Below are positions 10,868-31,036 of a DNA stretch of 32,000 nucleotides, piece after piece; the stretch's first letter is position 1; each line of letters opens with the position of its first letter. The notes under the pieces were generated by a model. The model had not been told where the DNA came from. It searched no databases and was given only the letters and a program-made list of their open reading frames with translations. The position numbers and the translations under genes are program-made. The stretch is from Candidatus Saccharimonadota bacterium (lineage in GTDB: Bacteria > Patescibacteriota > Microgenomatia > UBA1406 > GWC2-37-13), in contig MGBH01000001.1 of assembly GCA_001790095.1 (NCBI GenBank), positions 1,110,001 to 1,142,000 on the forward strand, read 5' to 3'.

Positions 10868-13800
10868 GTTTATTATCTTCAATTTTCATCTCTTGTGCAG
10901 CTTCAAAATGTTTCTCTTCTTCTTTAGGTTTTGCCTTTTTGAGTTCGACCAACTCTTCGTCATCTTTTGATTTTTCTTTCAATTTTTCTGTAATCTGTCT
11001 TTCCATCTCTTTCATCTCTTTAACGTGTTTTGCTGCTTCAAGTTTTGCTTTAAGATATACAGCAAGCTCTTCTCCCTTTAGATTATTGATAAGGAAGATA
11101 GGTAAGATATATCCCAGGTCATCAACTCCTTGAGCCTTTAATTTTTCATCAGGTGACATGAGTTTGTTAAGGGTGTTGGTGATAAAGACGATGTCTTGAT
11201 CGACCCATTCCTCACGAGAAGAAAGATTTTCTGATACCGGCACCTCTCCTTTTTCATACTGTGAAGTCCACATTTTCTTCACCTCTTCATAGTCTTCTAT
11301 AGATACGCTAGGCGGAATAGAAAGAGTTTGTTCAATATGTTTTTCCGGTTCGGTTACGAGCGGAGTTTGAGTTGAGATGATTTTCTTTACCTGCTCTTCT
11401 TTGAGGTTTTCTTTTTCTGCAATTTTCTTGATGGTGTCTTTATCTGCAACTGCTACTTTTGCAACTTCCTTGATGACGGTAATCACTTTTGTTTTTTCAA
11501 TACCTGTTTCTTTACAGACATTGGTTATGATCTCAGCAGGGGTAGCTACTTGTTGGTTGAGTATCGGTGTATTGGCAACACGGTCAACCTCTTTTATCAC
11601 CGACTCAACTTTTTCTCTACTTATCCCCGTGGCTTGATAAATCTGATTTATTGTCTGTGTTTTAAACGAAGAAGATGAGGTGGTAGATGGGGCGGATGCA
11701 GAGATAGAGTTTTTATATGAGGCGAGAACTGTTTGTACCTGAGAGGAGGATGCGCTGGTATTTTTTGCAATGGTATTGACCATGTTGCTGTTTGATGCAA
11801 CTGAACTGACAAATGAACTATTTACTGATTGAGAAGAGGATATGGATGGTGAGTATGCAGAGACGGTGTTGATGCTTTTAGTTGCTTGGGCAACATTTTG
11901 GACATTTTGATTGAGTGAGCTAATGACTGACTGTATTTGAGGAGAGGAGACGTTGGTATTTTTTGACACTGTGTTGACAAGGCTACTATTTGCAGCAACA
12001 GAGGAGAAAAACGAATTGTTTACTGAAGATATTTTGTCTTGTGAAACATTTGCTTTGTATGATACAACCTGTGTAAGGGATGAGGTTTGAGGTACTGTCC
12101 GCAATAGTTCTTCTCGGCGCGTAGTCTGTTCGATGTGGGATGATGAGATGGAGGAGAGGATCTGTTTTGCCATGCGGTCTTCTTTTATGGTACGGTTGAA
12201 GAGTTCGGTGCGGATATTCATGAATTTCTGTCTTTCGGTTGGAGTCTCTGCTTTGGTTGGTTGAGAAAGGAAATCTAAATTTTTTCGAATAGTTTCATTT
12301 GATTGTTTATTTGTCTCAAAACGGGCGATATCAGTGATCTTATTCATAGAGAGATTCAAAGATTTACTTATTTCCTCTGTTTTTGTTTTTTTGATTTCCT
12401 CCATAGTCTCAAGACGTACTTTTATTGGTACTTCTACTTCATGAGGTAATTTGAGTGCTGTACCAGTTGAAGATGGAGAGGGCATGGGGGAGGAAGGTGG
12501 CGGTTTTGGTCCGGGAGCACCCCTTGTCTGATCATACATAGACATAAGGATATTTTTCATAGCATATATTCCATCACAGCAATAATCACGGAAGATACGA
12601 AGAAGCCACCATGGGAAAAAGGTCACAGCCCACAGCATGATGAGTGTAATGATGTATTCTGCAAATGTATCGACATAGTTTCCGTTATTTAAAGCAGACA
12701 ACTTTTGTAGATTGACCTGGGCAGGTCCTCCATAAGTGATATTGATACCCGTAGGGTAGATATATCCGACAAGATTGTTCACGCGCGAAAAATCAAAAGG
12801 AAATGGAATGCCTCGTTTCCAGATAGTGGCAAGACCTCCCAAAAAAAGGGCAAAGAGAGGTCCGTAAAAAACCCACTGGAAAAATACGCCAATCCAGATC
12901 CAACCGATATTGCGGATAAATACAAACGGCATAAGAAGAGCCAGGAACGGAGCGACAAATACAAGAAACCACAGAAGGATTTTTCTTAAAATAAGCATGA
13001 TTCCCATGACGTAGTAGGTAACATTGGTTATCTTAAGAAGTACGATTTCAGAACCCACCGCTTCACGTACTTTGTAATTTAGATCGCGGCATCCTACAAA
13101 ATCAACATAACTTTGTTCTTGTGAGACTGACCCGGTAAAGTAAATATTAAAAAGCTTGTCTCCTCCTAAGGTCTCAACAAAGAACTTCATGATGATCTCT
13201 GACATCTGAATGATAAAGATAGTCAGAGCATAAGAAAATAAAATATACAGGAGTCCCATCACGATCTTTGATATGATAGGCCAAACCTGTACTCTTAATT
13301 GGAAGTTTGCCTGTTGTCCGATGATAAGTCCTATGCCAAAGAGAGCAGATACGAGTATAAATAGAAAAAGCGCCACATTTTTTGTTGCATCCCATATGAC
13401 ACGAATGGTTGGGTGATTATCTATTGCGCTTTTACTTATGGCCCAGTAGATAAACTGGCGGGCTCTTTCATTTGATTTTCCTTGAGTTGTCACTTCCTCA
13501 TCAAGCGCCCAGTAATGATTTTTGAGAGGGTTTTTCATGAACTCAGAATAACTTGTTACGCAGGTCTCATTGAAGCTTGTATATGCATCTTTTAGTCCGG
13601 TTGGACAGTTGCCAAGATGAGAAGCTGTTGAACAAGGAAGCGGATCATAGGCGCCTTGGATAGCAGCAGTACTTGAAGAAGAACCACCACCGCCACCACC
13701 ACCACCTCCACCACCACCACCTCCATCATCATCGTCATCTCCACCTCCACCATCACATTCACACAATTCGTTTATATCATCTGTTTCTGTACAACCATCA

Positions 13801-23349: not shown

Positions 23350-24246
23350 TTAATAGTAAGTTTTTTGCCAATGAGGGTCGGTTTGGACCGTTAAATCGAG
23401 AAATACTTTTTTTCCAACTGCCAGTGCAATTTCTTTTCTTGCATAGCTTCCGATCTCTTTTATCTTTCTTCCTTGAGTTCCAATAAGCATTTTTTTATAG
23501 CGATTATCTGTAGTGAGTATTCTGGCTTTGATAAATTTAGTTCCATTTTTCCGTTCAATTATTTCGTCAACAATTGCGGTTGTCGTATAAGGGATTTCCT
23601 CACCCATCATAAGAAAGACCTTTTCCCGGATGAGTTCTGCGACAAATATTTTACTGTCAATGTTAAGAAGAGGATAGACTCCCTTTTGTTGCTCTTCAGA
23701 CAAGACCCCCCCTTCTTGCCGATTTTTTTCAGGAATAAGTTCAAAGATTCGCTGGATAAGTGGTTTGACATGAGTTTGATTAAGTGCAGATATAAGAAAG
23801 ACGTCTTTAAATTCATCTTCCATAAATTTATATTGAGGAAGATAGGTAGGTTCGGGCTCATCAATCTTATTAATGACAAGAATTTTAGGTTTATCTATTT
23901 TTCGAACAATTCCGAGAACCTTTGCTTCCTCAAAGTCGCGTTTTCTGGAATGATCAACCATATAGATAACAAGATCAATTTCTTCATGGAGCGCTTGAAA
24001 TGTATTTTGATTTATTCTTTTTGAGAGACTGTCTTCTGCTTTACCAAAAATACCCGGAGTATCAATAAAAATGATGGTACCTTTTTCGTTTTCATACAGA
24101 GCTTTTATAGGAAAGCGGGTAGTTTGAGGTTTGGGTGAGGTGATTGCTACCTTTGTTCCTATCAAGTTGTTTAAGAAAGTAGATTTGCCAACATTAGGCC
24201 TACCAATAAGTAATATCTTGCCCTGTTTGGTTTTTGTCTTTGTCAT
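23350..24246 (-). CDS. era: GTPase Era
   Basis: G1 GRPNVGKST, G3 DTPG, G4 NKID, and a C-terminal KH domain (LIGTQGRKIKEIG). Confidence 0.9.
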   Translation of the reverse strand: MTKTKTKQGKILLIGRPNVGKSTFLNNLIGTKVAITSPKPQTTRFPIKALYENEKGTIIFIDTPGIFGKAEDSLSKRINQNTFQALHEEIDLVIYMVDHSRKRDFEEAKVLGIVRKIDKPKILVINKIDEPEPTYLPQYKFMEDEFKDVFLISALNQTHVKPLIQRIFELIPEKNRQEGGVLSEEQQKGVYPLLNIDSKIFVAELIREKVFLMMGEEIPYTTTAIVDEIIERKNGTKFIKARILTTDNRYKKMLIGTQGRKIKEIGSYARKEIALAVGKKVFLDLTVQTDPHWQKTYY

Positions 24247-24253
24247 GTTATGT

Positions 24254-24262
24254 ATTGTAGCA
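24254..24262 (-). promoter_or_regulatory. extended -10 element TGCTACAAT for era, 7 nt upstream of its ATG
   Basis: The reverse complement of 24247..24262 reads TGCTACAAT ACATAAC followed by ATG. No SD lies between. Confidence 0.4.
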
Positions 24263-24282
24263 GATTATGTATACTTCTTTTA

Positions 24283-24313
24283 TTCAGTTTATTTTCAGCC
24301 TAATCGGTATAAT
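24283..24313 (+). promoter_or_regulatory. direct repeat TTCAG-N6-TTCAG (11-nt period) plus TATAAT; candidate response-regulator box and promoter of the two-component operon
   Basis: TTCAG 24283..24287, TTTATT, TTCAG 24294..24298, 9 nt, TATAAT 24308..24313, 7 nt, ATG 24321. The same architecture occurs at 26021..26052. Confidence 0.5.
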
Positions 24314-24320
24314 GGGATTC

Positions 24321-24995
24321 ATGAGAATACTTGTTGTGGAGGATGAACACAGGATCGCAAACGCAATCAAAAAAGGCCTGGAACAAGAAACGTATGCGGT
24401 GGATGTAGTATATTCGGGGAATGACGGATATGATCTTGCTTCAACCGAGGATTATGATCTAATAATCCTTGACCTTATGCTTCCGGGGATGGATGGGATA
24501 ACCATATGCAAGCAGCTTCGAAAAGATAGTATCCATATACCAATTTTAGTATTAACCGCAAAAGGACAGATCCAAGACAAAGTAATAGGTTTAAATGCGG
24601 GAGCTGATGATTATCTGACCAAACCGTTTGCGTTTGAAGAACTTCTGGCTCGTATCCGTGCGCTTACTCGTAGACCAAGAGCTTCTATCAATGATACATT
24701 AAAAGTTCATGACCTTGAATTGAATCCAACTTCATTCCAGGTTAAACGGGGAGACATTTCTTTACATATATCAAACAAAGAATTTGCACTTCTGGAATAT
24801 TTGATGAGGAACGCAGATAAGATTCTGACTAAAGACCAGATAATAGCTCATGTATGGAACTATGATGCCGACATACTGCCCAACACCATAGAAGTATATA
24901 TTCGTAAGCTCCGCAACAAGATAGATCTTCCCTTTCCAGACAAAATGCAGCTAATTCAGACTGTTCGAGGCTTTGGGTACAAAATTACAACTTAA
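24321..24995 (+). CDS. OmpR/PhoB-family response regulator
   Basis: MRILVVEDE, DLIILDLMLPGMDG, LTAKG, and a winged-helix C-terminus (IEVYIRKLRNKID...TVRGFGYK). Start is placed at ATG 24321; the ORF-track start at 24267 adds a non-homologous hydrophobic leader. Confidence 0.85.
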   Translation: MRILVVEDEHRIANAIKKGLEQETYAVDVVYSGNDGYDLASTEDYDLIILDLMLPGMDGITICKQLRKDSIHIPILVLTAKGQIQDKVIGLNAGADDYLTKPFAFEELLARIRALTRRPRASINDTLKVHDLELNPTSFQVKRGDISLHISNKEFALLEYLMRNADKILTKDQIIAHVWNYDADILPNTIEVYIRKLRNKIDLPFPDKMQLIQTVRGFGYKITT

Positions 24996-24996
24996 T

Positions 24997-26016
24997 ATGT
25001 TTCAAAACGCACGCGTCACACTAACTGCATGGTATCTTCTCATCATTATGGTCATAAGTCTCTCATTTAGCATTGTGTTGTATAGGGGGATGGTCAAAGA
25101 GGTAGAGAGATTTGCGCGCATGCAGCAGGTACGGATGGAAAGACGCGTATTTGATAACGGACCCTTTGACCCTGCATTTATCCAGACGATTGAGATTCAA
25201 GACGTGGACCTTGTTCGAGAGATAAAAATGAGGATACTTACGATTCTTTTCATAATCAACGGCTCAATATTTTTCATAGCGGGAGGATTTGGATATGTTT
25301 TGGCTGGTAAAACGCTCAATCCAATAAAACAAATGATGGATGAGCAGAACCGTTTTATAAGCGATGCGTCGCATGAGTTTAGGACTCCGCTTACATTTTT
25401 AAAGACAGCGATGGAGGTACACCTTCGGAATAAAAAAGCAGTATTAAAAGATGCAAATCTTCTCATTTCAGAGAGCATAGAAGAAGTAAACAGGCTTCAG
25501 GCATTGTCTGAAGAACTATTGCAGCTTACCCAGTACGAAAAACCAAACGGACATATGAAACAAGAAACAATTTCATTGTCTGAGGTAGTAAAACAGGCTA
25601 TAAAAAAAGTCGAGCCATTAGCTAAAAAAAAGAACATAATTATTTCATCTCGTTTGCTCGATATACATATAAAAGGAAACATCTATGCGCTTTTAGATTT
25701 ATTTGTTGTAATACTTGATAATGCCATCAAATACAGTCCTTCAAAAAGCCGCGTAGATATACACAGCAAACAAAAAGACAAATACAGCGTTATTTCAATA
25801 CAAGACAGCGGAATTGGTATTAAGAAAAAAGATCTTCCCCATATTTTCGATAGATTTTATCGTGCAGATACGGCACGGACAAAAACAAATGAAGGTGGTT
25901 ATGGTTTAGGGTTATCAATCGCAAAAAAGATCATAGATTGTCATCAAGGCTCAATTCACATAGAAAGCACTTTTGCAAAAGGCACAAAAGTTGTCATGCA
26001 ATTTGTGACCGTTTAA
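24997..26016 (+). CDS. sensor histidine kinase (two TM segments, HisKA + HATPase_c)
   Basis: H-box FISDASHEFRTPLT, N-box LDNAIKYS, D/G-box QDSGIGI...FDRFYR, G2 GGYGLGLSIAK. ATG 24997 lies 1 nt after the regulator stop. Confidence 0.85.
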   Translation: MFQNARVTLTAWYLLIIMVISLSFSIVLYRGMVKEVERFARMQQVRMERRVFDNGPFDPAFIQTIEIQDVDLVREIKMRILTILFIINGSIFFIAGGFGYVLAGKTLNPIKQMMDEQNRFISDASHEFRTPLTFLKTAMEVHLRNKKAVLKDANLLISESIEEVNRLQALSEELLQLTQYEKPNGHMKQETISLSEVVKQAIKKVEPLAKKKNIIISSRLLDIHIKGNIYALLDLFVVILDNAIKYSPSKSRVDIHSKQKDKYSVISIQDSGIGIKKKDLPHIFDRFYRADTARTKTNEGGYGLGLSIAKKIIDCHQGSIHIESTFAKGTKVVMQFVTV

Positions 26017-26020
26017 TTAT

Positions 26021-26052
26021 TTCAGTTAGTTTTCAGTTCTATTATTTATTAT
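26021..26052 (+). promoter_or_regulatory. direct repeat TTCAG-N6-TTCAG plus TATTAT; candidate response-regulator box and promoter of the MFP-ABC operon
   Basis: TTCAG 26021..26025, TTAGTT, TTCAG 26032..26036, 10 nt, TATTAT 26047..26052, 9 nt, ATG 26062. Confidence 0.5.
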
Positions 26053-26061
26053 TTTTTATAT

Positions 26062-27378
26062 ATGAATTTTTCGCTTCTTATAAGAGTTAAATTTTTTTTG
26101 ATAAAACAACCCCTCATCATCAAACTTTTTTTCCTCATAATAATGATTGCGGCGGGAGGATTTATGGTCACTTCTTTTACTAACAGTAAAAAAACAACAC
26201 TGCAATATCAGACGGAAAAAGCAATAAAAGGAACTCTTATTGTAAGCGTCACAGGTTCAGGACAGGTTTCAACATCCAACAATGGAACAGTATCAACATT
26301 AGCTACAGGAGTAGTCTCAAAAGTATATGTCAAAGATGGAGACGAGGTAAAGGCGGGAGACAAGATTGCAGAGGTTGATTTGGATTTGCAAGGTCAACAA
26401 AACGCTCAGACAGCCCTGTCAAGTTATCAAAGCGCAAAAAACAACCTCGATACTGCAAAGGCCAATATGTACTCATTACAATCTACTATGTTTACCAACT
26501 GGGATGCATTCATGAAAATCGCGCAAAACGGTACGTATCAGTATGAAGACGGAAGTCCAAACAACATAAACAGAGCTCTTCCCGAGTTTCATATCGCAAA
26601 TGACAATTGGTTGGCTGCAGAGGCTAAATATAAAATACAGCAAAATGTGGTAAACCAATCTCAAATTGCATTAAGCGCTGCATGGTCTTCTTATCAACAG
26701 ACCTCACCAATCATATATGCTCCCATTTCAGGCACAGTCTCTGGTCTTTCCTTGCAGAGCGGGTCTGTGATTGTCGCAAATACCAGTACTTCAAATAGTG
26801 CTCAAAGTGCAACAAAGATTGCCTCAGTTAAAACAAAAGCGCTGCCGACCGTATCTATTAATTTAACTGAGATTGATGTGCCTAAAATTGATCTTGGCGA
26901 CAAGGCAACAGTGACATTCGATGCTTTTTCCGACAAAACATATACGGGTACAGTCATCAGCATCGATACTGCAGGAATAGTTTCCTCAGGAGTGACTACC
27001 TACCCCGCCGTAATCAAACTTGATGTTGAGTCAGACTCAATTTTACCCAATATGGCAGCTTCAGCCAACATAATAACAGCCACGAGAGACGATGTACTTC
27101 TTATCCCTTCCTCAGGCGTAAAGACACAGACAGACGGTGAAGCTTATGTACAGGTCATGAAAAATGGCAAACCTGTTGATATAACGGTTGAGGTAGGGTT
27201 ATCGTCTGATACTCAGACAGAGATTTTGTCAGGAATCTCTAAAGGGGACGTAATAATTATTGGTACTACACCGGTCACAACAAAAGGCGGTCAGGGTTCA
27301 AATACCTCACAATCTCCTTTTAGCAACTTTGGCAGTGGAAGCGGAGGAGTTAGGGTAGGAGGATTTGGAGGCCGATAA
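26062..27378 (+). CDS. HlyD/MacA-type membrane fusion (periplasmic adaptor) protein
   Basis: N-terminal TM anchor; lipoyl-like motif VSKVYVKDGDEVKAGDKIAEVD; coiled-coil hairpin; second half of the barrel-sandwich PISGTVSGLSLQSG; beta-barrel domains. Gly-rich C-terminal tail. Confidence 0.75.
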   Translation: MNFSLLIRVKFFLIKQPLIIKLFFLIIMIAAGGFMVTSFTNSKKTTLQYQTEKAIKGTLIVSVTGSGQVSTSNNGTVSTLATGVVSKVYVKDGDEVKAGDKIAEVDLDLQGQQNAQTALSSYQSAKNNLDTAKANMYSLQSTMFTNWDAFMKIAQNGTYQYEDGSPNNINRALPEFHIANDNWLAAEAKYKIQQNVVNQSQIALSAAWSSYQQTSPIIYAPISGTVSGLSLQSGSVIVANTSTSNSAQSATKIASVKTKALPTVSINLTEIDVPKIDLGDKATVTFDAFSDKTYTGTVISIDTAGIVSSGVTTYPAVIKLDVESDSILPNMAASANIITATRDDVLLIPSSGVKTQTDGEAYVQVMKNGKPVDITVEVGLSSDTQTEILSGISKGDVIIIGTTPVTTKGGQGSNTSQSPFSNFGSGSGGVRVGGFGGR

Positions 27379-27384
27379 TTTGCT

Positions 27385-28107
27385 ATGAATAACAAACCTA
27401 TTATCCAGACAAAACATCTTTGTAAAATTTATAAAACTGATGTTGTTGAGACGATTGCTCTCTCTGATGTTTCTTTTCAAATAAACAGGGGTGAATTTGT
27501 GGCTATTATGGGTCCATCTGGGAGTGGTAAATCTACTCTTATGCATATTTTAGGCGCTCTTGATCTTCCAACTTCTGGAGAGTATTTACTAGATGGGGAA
27601 ATAGTAAATAAACTCAAAGATGAAGAGTTGGCAGATATAAGAAATAAGAAAATTGGATTTGTATTTCAAGCCTATAACCTTCTTCCTCGTACGACTGCAA
27701 TGAAAAATGTCATGTTGCCGATGAGATATGCTGGTGTTGTGTATGAGGAAAGACAAGAAAAAGCAAGAAAATTTCTTGAGTTGGTTGGACTAGGCGATAG
27801 GTTAGAACACACATCAAATCAACTATCAGGTGGTCAACAGCAAAGAGTTGCAATCGCACGCGCTCTTGTTATGAATCCCACCATTTTGCTTGCTGATGAA
27901 CCAACGGGGAATATTGCGTCCGTTCAGGCCGAAGAAGTAATGTCTCTGTTTCAAAAATTAAACGAAGAGGGTCATACGGTTGTTATGATCACTCATGAAC
28001 AAGATATTGCCGCCCATGCCAAACGCATTATTCATGTGAAAGACGGTACCATCATTGGCGATGATATAAATCACAAGCAAAAAAAAGTTATTGCTTCAAA
28101 GAAATAA
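27385..28107 (+). CDS. MacB/LolD-type ABC transporter ATP-binding protein
   Basis: Walker A GPSGSGKST, Q-loop, signature LSGGQQQRVAIARAL, Walker B ILLADEPTG, H-loop ITHE. Confidence 0.9.
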   Translation: MNNKPIIQTKHLCKIYKTDVVETIALSDVSFQINRGEFVAIMGPSGSGKSTLMHILGALDLPTSGEYLLDGEIVNKLKDEELADIRNKKIGFVFQAYNLLPRTTAMKNVMLPMRYAGVVYEERQEKARKFLELVGLGDRLEHTSNQLSGGQQQRVAIARALVMNPTILLADEPTGNIASVQAEEVMSLFQKLNEEGHTVVMITHEQDIAAHAKRIIHVKDGTIIGDDINHKQKKVIASKK

Positions 28108-28109
28108 AT

Positions 28110-29333
28110 ATGGATTTATTTGAGCTATTTATTGAGAGTTTAGGTACTCTCACTCTAAACAAAACTCGTACAGGACTGGCGATCTTAGGTATTGTCATTG
28201 GAATTGGTAGTGTGATTGCTCTTGTTTCTTTGGGACAAGCAAGTCAACAAGCAATTGAATCACGCATTGAGTCGTTAGGATCAAATCTATTAACCATTCA
28301 ACCTGGATCAATACGGCAAGGAGGGGTAGTAGGGGCAGCAGGAGGAAGAACCTCTCTGAGTCTTGATGATGCTAAGGCGATTGCATCATCTCCACAGATT
28401 ACAACGATAGATAAAGTATCGCCTGAGTTTTCTCGAAGAGCTCAAGTGACCACAGGAGGAAGTAATACAAACACTCAGATAATCGGCGTAACTGTGGTTT
28501 ATTCTGAAGTTCATAAAGTAAACATGTCATCCGGTAGCTTTATTTCACAGCGGGATGTTGACATTATGAATAAGGTGGCTGTTGTGGGTCCGCAGGTGGT
28601 ATCTGATCTCTACGGAGACGGGGCAAACCCTATTGGTCAAAATATAAGAATTGAGGGTCAGACATTGAGGATCATTGGAATAACCGAGGCTAAAGGGGGG
28701 ACTGGTTTTCAGAACCAAGACGATGTTATTTATGTGCCATTAACAACAGCACAAAAACAACTTTTTGGAGTGAATTATTTAGGATCAATTGCTCTTGAAG
28801 CCAAAAGCGCCGAGGTGATGAGTAATGCTCAAAATGAAGTAGGCTATTTTCTCTTAAACCGCCACAAGCTTACAGATCCAACACAGGCGGACTTTTCCAT
28901 TTTTTCACAGCAGGACATATTAAATACGGTGACTTCAACCACTGGTACTTTTACGACACTTCTTGCTGGTATCGCTGCCATATCTTTGCTTGTTGGAGGA
29001 ATTGGAATAATGAATATTATGTTGGTGACCGTGACTGAACGGACACGGGAGATTGGTCTCCGGAAAGCTTTAGGTGCAAAAAAGAAAATTATAACAACAC
29101 AGTTTTTACTTGAGTCAATTATTCTTACATTTACTGGTGGTATTGTTGGAGTAGGATTGGGAGTTTTTGCTTCATATGTTATCTCCCGTTTGACCAGTTC
29201 ACCGTTTGTTGTTTCGCTTAGTTCAATATTGCTTGCGTTTATGGTATCTGCAGGCATTGGTATTGTATTTGGTTGGTATCCAGCTCAAAAAGCAGCAGGA
29301 CTTCAACCTATAGAAGCACTTCGGTATGAGTAA
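28110..29333 (+). CDS. MacB-type ABC transporter permease (MacB_PCD + FtsX domains)
   Basis: TM1, then a large extracytoplasmic domain, then three TM segments with TERTREIGLRKALGA, the FtsX-family hallmark. Confidence 0.85.
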   Translation: MDLFELFIESLGTLTLNKTRTGLAILGIVIGIGSVIALVSLGQASQQAIESRIESLGSNLLTIQPGSIRQGGVVGAAGGRTSLSLDDAKAIASSPQITTIDKVSPEFSRRAQVTTGGSNTNTQIIGVTVVYSEVHKVNMSSGSFISQRDVDIMNKVAVVGPQVVSDLYGDGANPIGQNIRIEGQTLRIIGITEAKGGTGFQNQDDVIYVPLTTAQKQLFGVNYLGSIALEAKSAEVMSNAQNEVGYFLLNRHKLTDPTQADFSIFSQQDILNTVTSTTGTFTTLLAGIAAISLLVGGIGIMNIMLVTVTERTREIGLRKALGAKKKIITTQFLLESIILTFTGGIVGVGLGVFASYVISRLTSSPFVVSLSSILLAFMVSAGIGIVFGWYPAQKAAGLQPIEALRYE

Positions 29334-29357: not shown

Positions 29358-29786
29358 ATGAAAACTAATCAAATCTTTCTATTTCTCTCTTTATTCATTA
29401 TTGTTGGAGCAATTGCATTTTATGGCGGAATGAAATATCAGGAAAGCAACCAAAGAAATAATTTCCTTAATAATTTAAAAGGAGGGGGAGCGCCTGGTAT
29501 GCTTGGACGCACTACAGGTCAAAACGGTAACAGAGTAGGTTTTCGTCCAGTAAACGGAGAGATCATCAGTACGGATGATAAATCTATAACAGTAAAAATG
29601 CCAGATGGTAGTAGTCGGATTGTGTTTATAAATGATAAAACCATAATTAATAAGGCTGAAACTGCATCTAGGGAGGATTTGAAGTTAGGAGTAAAGGTAG
29701 CAGTATTTGGAAATATGAACACAGATGGAAGTATGAGCGCCCAAAACATACAACTAAATCCAATAAATAGCAGAAGGGAGAACTAA
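29358..29786 (+). CDS. small membrane-anchored protein, DUF5666-like OB/beta domain
   Basis: N-terminal TM segment, Gly/Asn-rich linker, then GEIISTDDKSITVKMPDGSSRIVFINDKT...GVKVAVFG. Last gene of the ABC operon. Confidence 0.5.
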   Translation: MKTNQIFLFLSLFIIVGAIAFYGGMKYQESNQRNNFLNNLKGGGAPGMLGRTTGQNGNRVGFRPVNGEIISTDDKSITVKMPDGSSRIVFINDKTIINKAETASREDLKLGVKVAVFGNMNTDGSMSAQNIQLNPINSRREN

Positions 29787-30295: not shown

Positions 30296-31036
30296 TTACA
30301 CTTCAATAAACTTTGCCAAGTACATAATGATAATTCCGAGTATAAAAAACAAAAATGATAAGAAAGACTTATATAAATTAGTTTCTTTTCTCATCTCTGG
30401 GATAAGATCGGTTGTGGCAATATAGATAAACCCGCCTGCCGCAACAGGAAGCAGGTAAAAGGTAAAATGTTCAACTCTGGACGCTGCAAAGTAACCAATC
30501 ACTCCTCCAAATACCGCAGTTAAGGCTGTCATGAAGTTGGCAAATAATGCTTTTTTTCTCCCGAAGCCTGCATATAGAAGTACACCAAAATCTCCAATTT
30601 CCTGGGGAATTTCATGGAGGGCTACCGCTAAAGTAGTCACTACACCAAGATGAAAACTTGTTAAAAAACTTGCCGCTATGACAAGACCGTCGATAAAATT
30701 ATGGATACTATCACCGATCAGATTCATCAAACCAAACGTATGAACTTTACATACTCCTTTGTGACAGTGTCTCCAGTGCAATAATTTTTCAAGGATAAAG
30801 AAAAAAATGAAGGAGAGTAAGACAAACAAAAATAGATTTCCATCTTGATATAGTTCCTGCGCTTCAGGAAGGAGATGTAGAAAAGCTCCGCCAATCAGTG
30901 CTCCGGCTGACAGAGAGACAAGAAGGATGAGGATTTTGTGCAGGGTTTTTTCTTTCATGACAAGAGTTATCACTCCAATCAAAGACCCAGCGCTGACAAC
31001 CAAGTTTGCTAAGATTATTGAAAATAAAATATTCAT
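30296..31036 (-). CDS. ZIP-family (ZupT-like) metal transporter
   Basis: HNFIDGLVIA and HEIPQEIGDFGVL are the ZIP signature helices. About 8 TM segments. Confidence 0.85.
   Translation of the reverse strand: MNILFSIILANLVVSAGSLIGVITLVMKEKTLHKILILLVSLSAGALIGGAFLHLLPEAQELYQDGNLFLFVLLSFIFFFILEKLLHWRHCHKGVCKVHTFGLMNLIGDSIHNFIDGLVIAASFLTSFHLGVVTTLAVALHEIPQEIGDFGVLLYAGFGRKKALFANFMTALTAVFGGVIGYFAASRVEHFTFYLLPVAAGGFIYIATTDLIPEMRKETNLYKSFLSFLFFILGIIIMYLAKFIEV

Follow-up and report, generated by a model that had tools for sequence, protein, structure and literature searches.

The response regulator PhoB recognizes direct repeats that lie one helical turn apart, end about 10 nt before the -10 element and replace the -35 element; it binds as a head-to-tail dimer and regulates its own gene. 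In the HssRS-HrtAB system of Staphylococcus and other Firmicutes, an OmpR-type pair acts via a direct repeat to drive a pump of MacB fold, which detoxifies an envelope-acting compound. To our knowledge, hardly any circuits have been defined in the Candidate Phyla Radiation (CPR, or Patescibacteria), whose members possess very small genomes and few regulators and for which almost no genetic tools exist. The CiaR box of Streptococcus reads NTTAAG-N5-TTTAAG, is located 10 nt before the -10 element and depends critically on its T, A and final G (PMC3091779). One account describes HrtBA as a MacB-like pump (PMC9271180), and another connects MacAB-like pumps of monoderm bacteria with resistance to antibiotics and antimicrobial peptides (PMC5768738). 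The locus described here lies in a 32,000-nt stretch of a Candidatus Saccharimonadota genome (assembly GCA_001790095.1, contig MGBH01000001.1, positions 1,110,001 to 1,142,000), hereafter the window. It encodes an OmpR-family regulator and a sensor kinase, followed by a MacB-type exporter operon, and the direct repeat TTCAG-N6-TTCAG is present at two promoters.

Box A is the predicted site of the adjacent OmpR-family regulator within its own promoter (P_A), and box B the predicted site of the same regulator within the exporter promoter (P_B). We consider it likely, on comparative grounds, that both boxes are operator sites of this regulator, which would regulate itself and switch on the exporter operon.

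Two TTCAG repeats in the window and in related loci

Boxes A and B are the only two matches to TTCAG-N6-TTCAG on either strand of the window. Dinucleotide shuffles contain 0.15 matches on average, and none of 100 shuffles contains two or more. Allowing one mismatch yields no extra site in the window, where 3.9 are expected. A weight matrix derived solely from related loci in other genomes scores box A at 22.4 bits and box B at 21.5 bits, and the runner-up position in the window at 8.9. Box B begins 5 nt past the kinase stop codon. A first-pass annotation of the window had given the sequences, spacings, -10 hexamers and start codons of both sites exactly as they are found. It had also placed both units of each repeat at the -35 position. 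The 11-nt period holds, but the boxes span about -37 to -22, so that only the upstream unit occupies the -35 position.

A scan with the regulator, taking one genome per species, identified 267 relatives. The comparisons use the best 80 of the 267 (65-77% identity) and the related loci extending ±6 kb around each orthologue, 844 kb in total. Nearly all of the 80 are metagenome-assembled genomes (MAGs) labelled Microgenomates or Patescibacteria, and the labels include Roizman-, Woese-, Gottesman-, Curtiss-, Shapiro-, Collier-, Ames- and Levybacteria. Other window genes are closest to those of L008, a Roizmanbacteria MAG (88% for the ATPase, for example). The gene order regulator, kinase, membrane-fusion protein (MFP), ATPase, permease and DUF5666 protein is kept in about 56 of the 80 loci.

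A degenerate form of the box, [TC]T[CA]AG-N6-[TC]T[CA]AG, is found upstream of the regulator start in 75 of the 80 loci (exact TTCAG-N6-TTCAG in 48) and ahead of the membrane-fusion gene in 52 of 56. The T, A and G positions of the units are invariant in the orthologues. At the regulator promoters, the gap between the box and the -10 element is 9 nt in 49 of 75 cases (range 8-11), the -10 element is a perfect TATAAT in 70 of 75, and it lies 6-9 nt before the start codon in 63 of 76. At the exporter promoters, the gap is 10 nt in 34 of 52 cases and the -10 element is a weaker, TAnnnT-like hexamer, with a perfect TATAAT in 3 of 52. Alignment on the -10 element alone, which makes no use of the motif, brings out two TTTTCAG blocks with 11-nt spacing as the sole conserved upstream sequence. 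The box is also kept at the exporter promoter in five loci with 0.5-2.5 kb of other genes between the kinase and membrane-fusion genes (L042, L043, L061, L075 and L076), and in L078, whose exporter operon precedes the regulator.

The position and strand of the box are specific. The degenerate box occurs 166 times on the + strand of the related loci and 11 times on the - strand, and 131 of the 166 are located ahead of the regulator gene or just past the kinase gene. Control genes carry it rarely: 0 of 55 permease, 2 of 80 kinase, 2 of 59 ATPase and 0 of 6 Era genes, and none of the four ZIP genes tested (window, L003, L005 and L033).

The units change jointly at the two promoters of a genome. 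A non-TTCAG unit at site A is accompanied by one at site B in 15 of 15 genomes, compared with 9 of 37 otherwise (Fisher p = 3e-7), and particular variants are common to both promoters (CTCAG, p = 5e-6; TTAAG, p = 2e-4). They also change with the recognition helix of the regulator, which is NTIEVYIRKLRNKI in the window (residues about 187-200). The helix conforms to EVYI[RK][NKS]LR with TTCAG boxes and to EVYIGYLR where CTCAG units occur. A CTCAG unit is present in 22 of 24 genomes whose regulator has GY at residues 195-196, and in 1 of 53 with a non-GY regulator (p = 6e-16). At all four units, TTAAG accompanies the two regulators with SVEVYIRHLRSK (RH-type; L057 and L062). GY and non-GY regulators are not split by overall identity, which is 68.6% within and 66.6% between the groups, and both are present among MAGs labelled Gottesmanbacteria. 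In the PhoB-DNA complex, R201 of PhoB, which aligns with regulator position 196, contacts bases.

The first-pass annotation had reasoned that an operator of this system should be infrequent away from promoters, conserved in orthologous loci and co-variable there. The counts above agree with it on all three points, and the comparative evidence supports its prediction of an autoregulated sensor system with the adjacent exporter operon as its regulon.

Proposed mechanism and alternatives

In the proposed mechanism, the co-transcribed membrane kinase would phosphorylate the regulator, which would then bind each box as a head-to-tail dimer, with one monomer per TTCAG unit and the monomers one helical turn apart. 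The downstream monomer would adjoin RNA polymerase, as the box ends 9-10 nt before the -10 element, in the manner of PhoB or CiaR. At P_B, with its weak TATTAT, binding would be required to switch on the MFP-ATPase-permease-DUF5666 operon. At P_A, the perfect TATAAT would provide basal expression of the sensor pair, and binding would add feedback, most likely positive. Transcripts from both promoters would begin on the ATG or no more than a few nucleotides from it. Those from P_A may read through into the exporter genes, because no terminator that would isolate P_B separates the kinase from the exporter; terminator-like structures are absent anywhere between the regulator, kinase and exporter genes. 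The signal is probably an envelope-acting stress. We infer physical binding, activation over repression, the transcription start sites and the exported substrate from comparison of sequences.

The mRNAs from P_A and P_B are probably leaderless, because only 6-9 nt separate the -10 element from the start codon. About half of the window genes, essentially those that come first in an operon, lack a Shine-Dalgarno sequence and carry a -10-like hexamer 5-12 nt ahead of the ATG, and leaderless mRNAs look like the rule in the source genome. In 80 comparable leaderless promoters from related loci, no -35 consensus is detectable, and TGn is present in 16. A canonical sigma-70 -35 element inside the box was rejected, as the best TTGACA match is at most 2/6 at 16-18 nt spacing at both promoters. 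A consensus promoter scan yielded fewer promoter-like sites than shuffled sequences did, and the -10 elements of P_A and P_B belong to none of them. Since a -35 element is generally lacking in these genomes, its absence at P_A and P_B is no evidence for activation. The weak exporter -10 element is the better argument.

The 74-nt divergent intergenic region that contains box A (24247-24320) also holds a likely leaderless promoter of the Era-like GTPase gene, with TACAAT on the - strand (about 24254-24259) and a spacing of 7 nt to the ATG at 24246. Box A lies just upstream of this promoter on the opposite strand. Era is not beside the regulator in most related loci, and any cross-effect would therefore be genome-specific.

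Several points weigh against the proposed mechanism. The box is not recognisable in 5 of 80 loci at site A and in 4 of 56 at site B. The pattern used to locate the boxes inflates the information content at the unit positions, and the unbiased profile anchored on the -10 element is weaker, at 0.4-1.2 bits per position. The co-variation statistics treat related genomes as independent. A perfect TATAAT such as that of P_A may need no activator to fire, and RNA polymerase could just as well be shut out by a box that covers -37 to -22. Contact between the regulator and the box, and its effects on expression, are predictions from sequence.

In the strongest alternative, the regulator binds the boxes but uses them as repressor operators. 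Occupancy of -37 to -22 would block RNA polymerase, and the signal would relieve repression, particularly at P_A (negative autoregulation). We regard this as unlikely. The box does overlap the core promoter, and at P_A an activator is not obviously needed, since the TATAAT is perfect and comparable promoters work without a -35 element. The exporter -10 elements, however, are systematically weak (3 of 52 perfect), which is a signature of activator-dependent promoters. A repressor would also tolerate a variable position and either strand, whereas strand and spacing are nearly invariant. The gap of 9-10 nt and the co-directional repeat match the activator PhoB. They also match the activator CiaR (PMC3091779). 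Because the exporter -10 is weak and the geometry is fixed in this way, activation is the preferred reading.

It is less probable still that the repeat is a promoter element read by another factor, either a lineage-specific -35 or UP-like element or the site of a different transcription factor, with the two-component system next to it by accident. The promoters of these organisms are unusual in being leaderless and in having no -35 consensus, and the pairing of regulator and box is itself a prediction. A general element, however, should recur at promoters of the same style, defined as TATAAT, 5-10 nt, a start codon and an open reading frame (ORF) of at least 80 aa. In the same loci, the box is present in 62 of 65 such regulator promoters but in only 2 of 81 others, and these two drive an MFP gene and a DUF5666 gene of the same operon family. 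The box as a general promoter element is rejected on these counts. In addition, residues 195-196 in the recognition helix of this very regulator vary together with the sequence of the box, and the same box stands ahead of both the regulator and the transporter in Firmicutes-like contigs that encode a distant response regulator-histidine kinase pair and an ABC transporter of another type (see below). Coincidence between two AT-rich intergenic regions that share a short repeated pentamer has a negligible probability: only 10 bases are specified and the genome has about 37% G+C, but none of the 100 shuffles contained two matches, and chance cannot account for conservation of distance and strand over 80 loci.

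Genes of the locus and wider distribution of the box

The regulator is composed of a receiver domain (residues 3-113, PF00072) and a winged-helix Trans_reg_C domain (residues 148-221, PF00486). In its translation, the phospho-acceptor Asp51 is located in IILDLMLP, and E7/D8 and the lysine of LTKPF are also present. The start codon is the ATG at 24321 (MRILVVEDE...) and not the ATG at 24267 of the longer ORF, because all orthologues align from residue 1 and only the box is conserved upstream. A single nucleotide separates the stop codon of the regulator (TAA, 24993-24995) from the ATG of the kinase at 24997, which suggests translational coupling. A TTG at 24973, the start of the longer kinase ORF in a mechanical listing, is not the real start according to orthologue alignments. 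Neither the regulator nor the kinase attains an equivalog cut-off in NCBIfam. Among named families, the highest scores go to the heavy-metal Cus/Cop/Czt group and RppA/RppB, with PhoB next.

The kinase is of minimal architecture and has no HAMP domain. Hydropathy and an alignment of 75 sequences place two transmembrane helices at about residues 9-29 and 78-102, with an outside loop of about 48 aa between them. The first helix (MF.SARLKLTAWYLLIIM) is at least 90% conserved among the 75 orthologues. The outside loop is variable and contains indels. This pattern of conservation in residues 1-105 (window 24997-25310) hints that the kinase may sense within the membrane or via a partner, for example the pump, and not by means of the loop.

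The membrane-fusion protein matches PF16576 (2.9e-13) and PF13437 (2.4e-08) and is encoded directly upstream of the ATPase; its NCBIfam scores for RND_mfp (92.9 bits) and MacA (71.6 bits) are both below cut-off. The best NCBIfam match of the ATPase is the N-terminal part of MacB. The permease contains a single MacB_PCD between its first helices and matches the structures of MacB (5GKO, 1.6e-61) and of Spr0695 from S. pneumoniae (5XU1, chain 5XU1_M, 7.9e-37). The DUF5666 gene lies 24 nt behind the permease gene, has no box of its own in the window, and is syntenic behind the permease in the large majority of exporter-bearing loci. Pfam bears out the gene identities proposed earlier (regulator, sensor, MFP, ABC ATPase and FtsX-type permease) and identifies the "small membrane protein" of that proposal as the DUF5666 protein. 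By Pfam and PDB matches, the proposed YknXYZ/MacAB-like exporter belongs to the split MacB-type pumps and has an adaptor, and its substrate is a prediction. Coordinates are given in Table 1.

Table 1. Features of the locus and of related sequences; positions are those of the window unless preceded by the identifier of another sequence
Feature	Position	Strand	Details
Box A, TTCAG-TTTATT-TTCAG	24283-24298	+	units 24283-24287 and 24294-24298; 11-nt period; exact match
P_A -10 hexamer, TATAAT	24308-24313	+	9 nt after box A, 7 nt before ATG 24321
Box B, TTCAG-TTAGTT-TTCAG	26021-26036	+	units 26021-26025 and 26032-26036; exact match
P_B -10 hexamer, TATTAT, off-consensus	26047-26052	+	10 nt after box B, 9 nt before ATG 26062
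OmpR/PhoB-family response regulator, 224 aa	24321-24995	+	Pfam Response_reg PF00072 7.9e-33, Trans_reg_C PF00486 1.2e-24
Sensor histidine kinase, 339 aa	24997-26016	+	Pfam HisKA and HATPase_c; H-box SHEFRTPLT
Membrane-fusion (HlyD/MacA-like) protein, first exporter-operon gene	26062-27378	+	Pfam HlyD_D23, HlyD_3, Biotin_lipoyl_2
ABC ATPase, MacB/LolD/FtsE-type	27385-28107	+	Pfam ABC_tran 1.2e-36
MacB-type permease (MacB_PCD and FtsX)	28110-29333	+	PF12704 3.8e-42, PF02687 1.2e-21
DUF5666 protein, N-terminal membrane anchor, last operon gene	29358-29786	+	Pfam DUF5666 8.9e-07
Era-like GTPase, divergent	23350-24246	-	Pfam
Leaderless-type starts, examples	2197, 3934 (-), 4651 (-), 4717, 13982 (-), 16874, 18625, 21947, 24246 (-), 24321, 26062
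Extra box, FMN_bind lipoprotein (ApbE next)	L021:3160, L027:3203, L054:3223, L065:3077, L067:3263
Extra box, secreted helical protein, about 160 aa	L017:11460, L030:7683, L046:7788, L056:4498, L058:8835
Extra box, S9/S33-type hydrolase	L030:9136, L056:5079, L058:7739
Extra box, cupredoxins	L036:7718, L076:1142
Second-class contigs	L097, L103, L106, L121, L130, L140, L145, L146, L155, L157, L191, L199

In the related loci, the box is also found ahead of other genes. These encode an FMN_bind protein followed by ApbE (5 of 6), a secreted helical protein with LTxxQ-like repeats (at least 4 of 8), cupredoxins (3 of 9) and an S9/S33-type hydrolase (4 of 23; elsewhere the hydrolase sits inside the operon). 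The helical protein is Spy/CpxP-like by eye and has no Pfam match. DUF5666 genes have a box of their own in 8 of 52 loci, when they are not immediately behind the permease. All five are candidate members of the regulon. They are all exported or membrane-anchored, which fits an envelope-directed response.

Two other gene neighbours were seen. In L003-L006, L010, L050 and L077 (about 11,000-12,100), the exporter operon contains an extra gene, for an S9-type hydrolase, between those for the permease and the DUF5666 protein. A gene for a ZIP-family metal transporter lies at 30296-31036 (-) in the window, and such genes are found about 0.1-4 kb from the regulator or exporter genes in the window, L003, L005, L033 and L136.

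A metagenome scan with the pattern TTCAGC-N4-TTTCAG-N9/10-TAnAAT returned at least 120 stretches, and the downstream ORF was read at each listed match. Among the matches listed, at least 23 precede regulators, about 19 of which are Microgenomates orthologues of 60-75% identity; the remaining ones are 36-46% identical and come from other contigs. At least three MFP genes and at least one DUF5666 gene are also among the matches listed. An unexpected second class comprises at least 12 contigs of 34-64% G+C, several of them from human gut, with a regulator of 37-43% identity and a kinase. Its order is regulator, kinase, box, ABC ATPase, ABC-2 permease, GldG-like protein (ABC_transp_aux) and DUF4340 protein. 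There is usually a second box ahead of the regulator, and the recognition helix is ENHVEVYIGFLRKKL. The arrangement points to a sister module, Firmicutes-like, that shares the DNA code. Judged from these contigs, the same code and two-promoter logic is present outside the CPR.

A broader reading is that the TTCAG-N6-TTCAG code and the two-promoter logic constitute an ancient regulator-exporter cassette of CPR and Firmicutes, in which helix residues 195-196 have co-evolved with the first base of the unit and which serves an envelope regulon in Microgenomates. We offer it tentatively, as possible but rather doubtful. If true, it would define a small, lineage-wide envelope regulon readable from metagenomes, with the MacB-type pump, DUF5666 protein, FMN-binding protein and ApbE, Spy/CpxP-like protein, S9-type hydrolase and cupredoxin as its candidate members, and it would be among the first defined regulatory circuits of uncultivated CPR organisms. 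A literature search, within the library it covered, returned no description of a two-component system, a TTCAG box or this operon in CPR or Microgenomates, and nothing relevant on DUF5666.

The locus permits a cis-element, its likely regulator and its core targets to be assigned from sequence across a superphylum-level group. Helix position 195-196 would be a built-in specificity determinant, and the protein-DNA pair makes the circuit testable in vitro. The box regulon may also serve as a marker of "envelope stress on" in metatranscriptomes of CPR-rich communities.

Comparison with described systems

The closest described operator appears to be the CiaR box, by likeness of both box and helix sequence. 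As in CiaRH, a direct repeat of 11-bp period is located about 10 nt upstream of a TATAAT-like -10 element, and the critical T, A and final G of the CiaR box are the positions that are invariant here. The CiaR helix VVEVYVSKVRKKL, the published one being the only one compared, resembles the window regulator helix TIEVYIRKLRNKI. TTAAG units occur in several related genomes, and outright in L057 and L062. The window units, (T)TTCAG, differ from the CiaR box by one base, and most genomes have C, not A, as the central base. CiaRH also differs in its targets, which are htrA and small RNAs instead of a MacB-type exporter; the host here is a CPR bacterium, and the gap at the autoregulatory site is 9 nt. 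The 25 listed NCBIfam matches include no model with the name CiaR.

The sites had been called pho-box-like, which holds for the geometry and not for the sequence. The two units of 11-bp period end about 10 nt upstream of the -10 element as in a pho box, and among solved structures the PhoB DNA-binding domain (1GXP, 2.4e-16) ranks with the closest. The pho box, however, is made of CTGTCAT units instead of TTCAG, and there are no phosphate-related genes here. Membership of the PhoB family and the pho regulon was rejected, as the regulator scores 206.7 bits for TIGR02154 (cut-off 296.2) and 158.7 for NF007546 (cut-off 471). The closest solved DNA-binding domains are those of CovR (3RJP, 3.8e-22) and then ArlR (6KYX, 1.6e-16), ahead of PhoB, and DrrD is matched as well. 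CovR and ArlR have the helix pattern NxVxVYIRxLRxK in common with the regulator, and the likeness is confined to the whole domain. Their operators and regulons differ from those here.

Heavy-metal systems (Cus/Cop/Czt, RppA/NrsR) were considered, prompted by the best NCBIfam matches, the boxes at three of nine cupredoxins and the neighbouring ZIP gene. They were rejected, with scores below the cut-offs (TIGR01387, 244.5 against 279.2; TIGR01386, 146.6 against 292.55). A metal signal is likewise unsupported, as conserved His, Cys or Met residues are missing from the sensor loop and the ZIP genes lack the box. Bce-type flux-sensing modules have a BceB-type permease of 10 helices and a kinase that senses within the membrane and whose outside loop is very short. 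The MacB-type permease and the kinase loop of about 48 aa do not fit this architecture, and such a module was rejected.

Among exporters, Spr0693-0694-0695 of S. pneumoniae and YknXYZ of B. subtilis likewise consist of an MFP, a separate ATPase and a MacB_PCD/FtsX permease. The split between ATPase and permease is that of Spr0694/0695. The fused MacB equivalog of E. coli was rejected, since the two proteins are separate here and score 254 and 234 bits for NF007826 against a cut-off of 966. Neither Spr0693-0695 nor YknXYZ is known to lie under an adjacent OmpR-type system with such a box; yknWXYZ is sigma-W dependent, and the fourth gene here encodes a DUF5666 protein and not YknW.

The nearest functional parallel is HssRS-HrtAB, which also combines an adjacent OmpR-family pair, a direct repeat and a MacB-type (FtsX-fold) ABC exporter. 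It differs in that HrtAB has no membrane-fusion protein or DUF5666 partner and its repeat has another sequence, and haem is not implicated here. With the arrangement recurring in dozens of uncultured Microgenomates, the locus is very probably a self-regulating stress switch of classical type, whose recognition in this lineage is new but whose kind is ordinary. Its mechanism would be textbook, adding a member to the direct-repeat class of OmpR-family regulators rather than a new principle.

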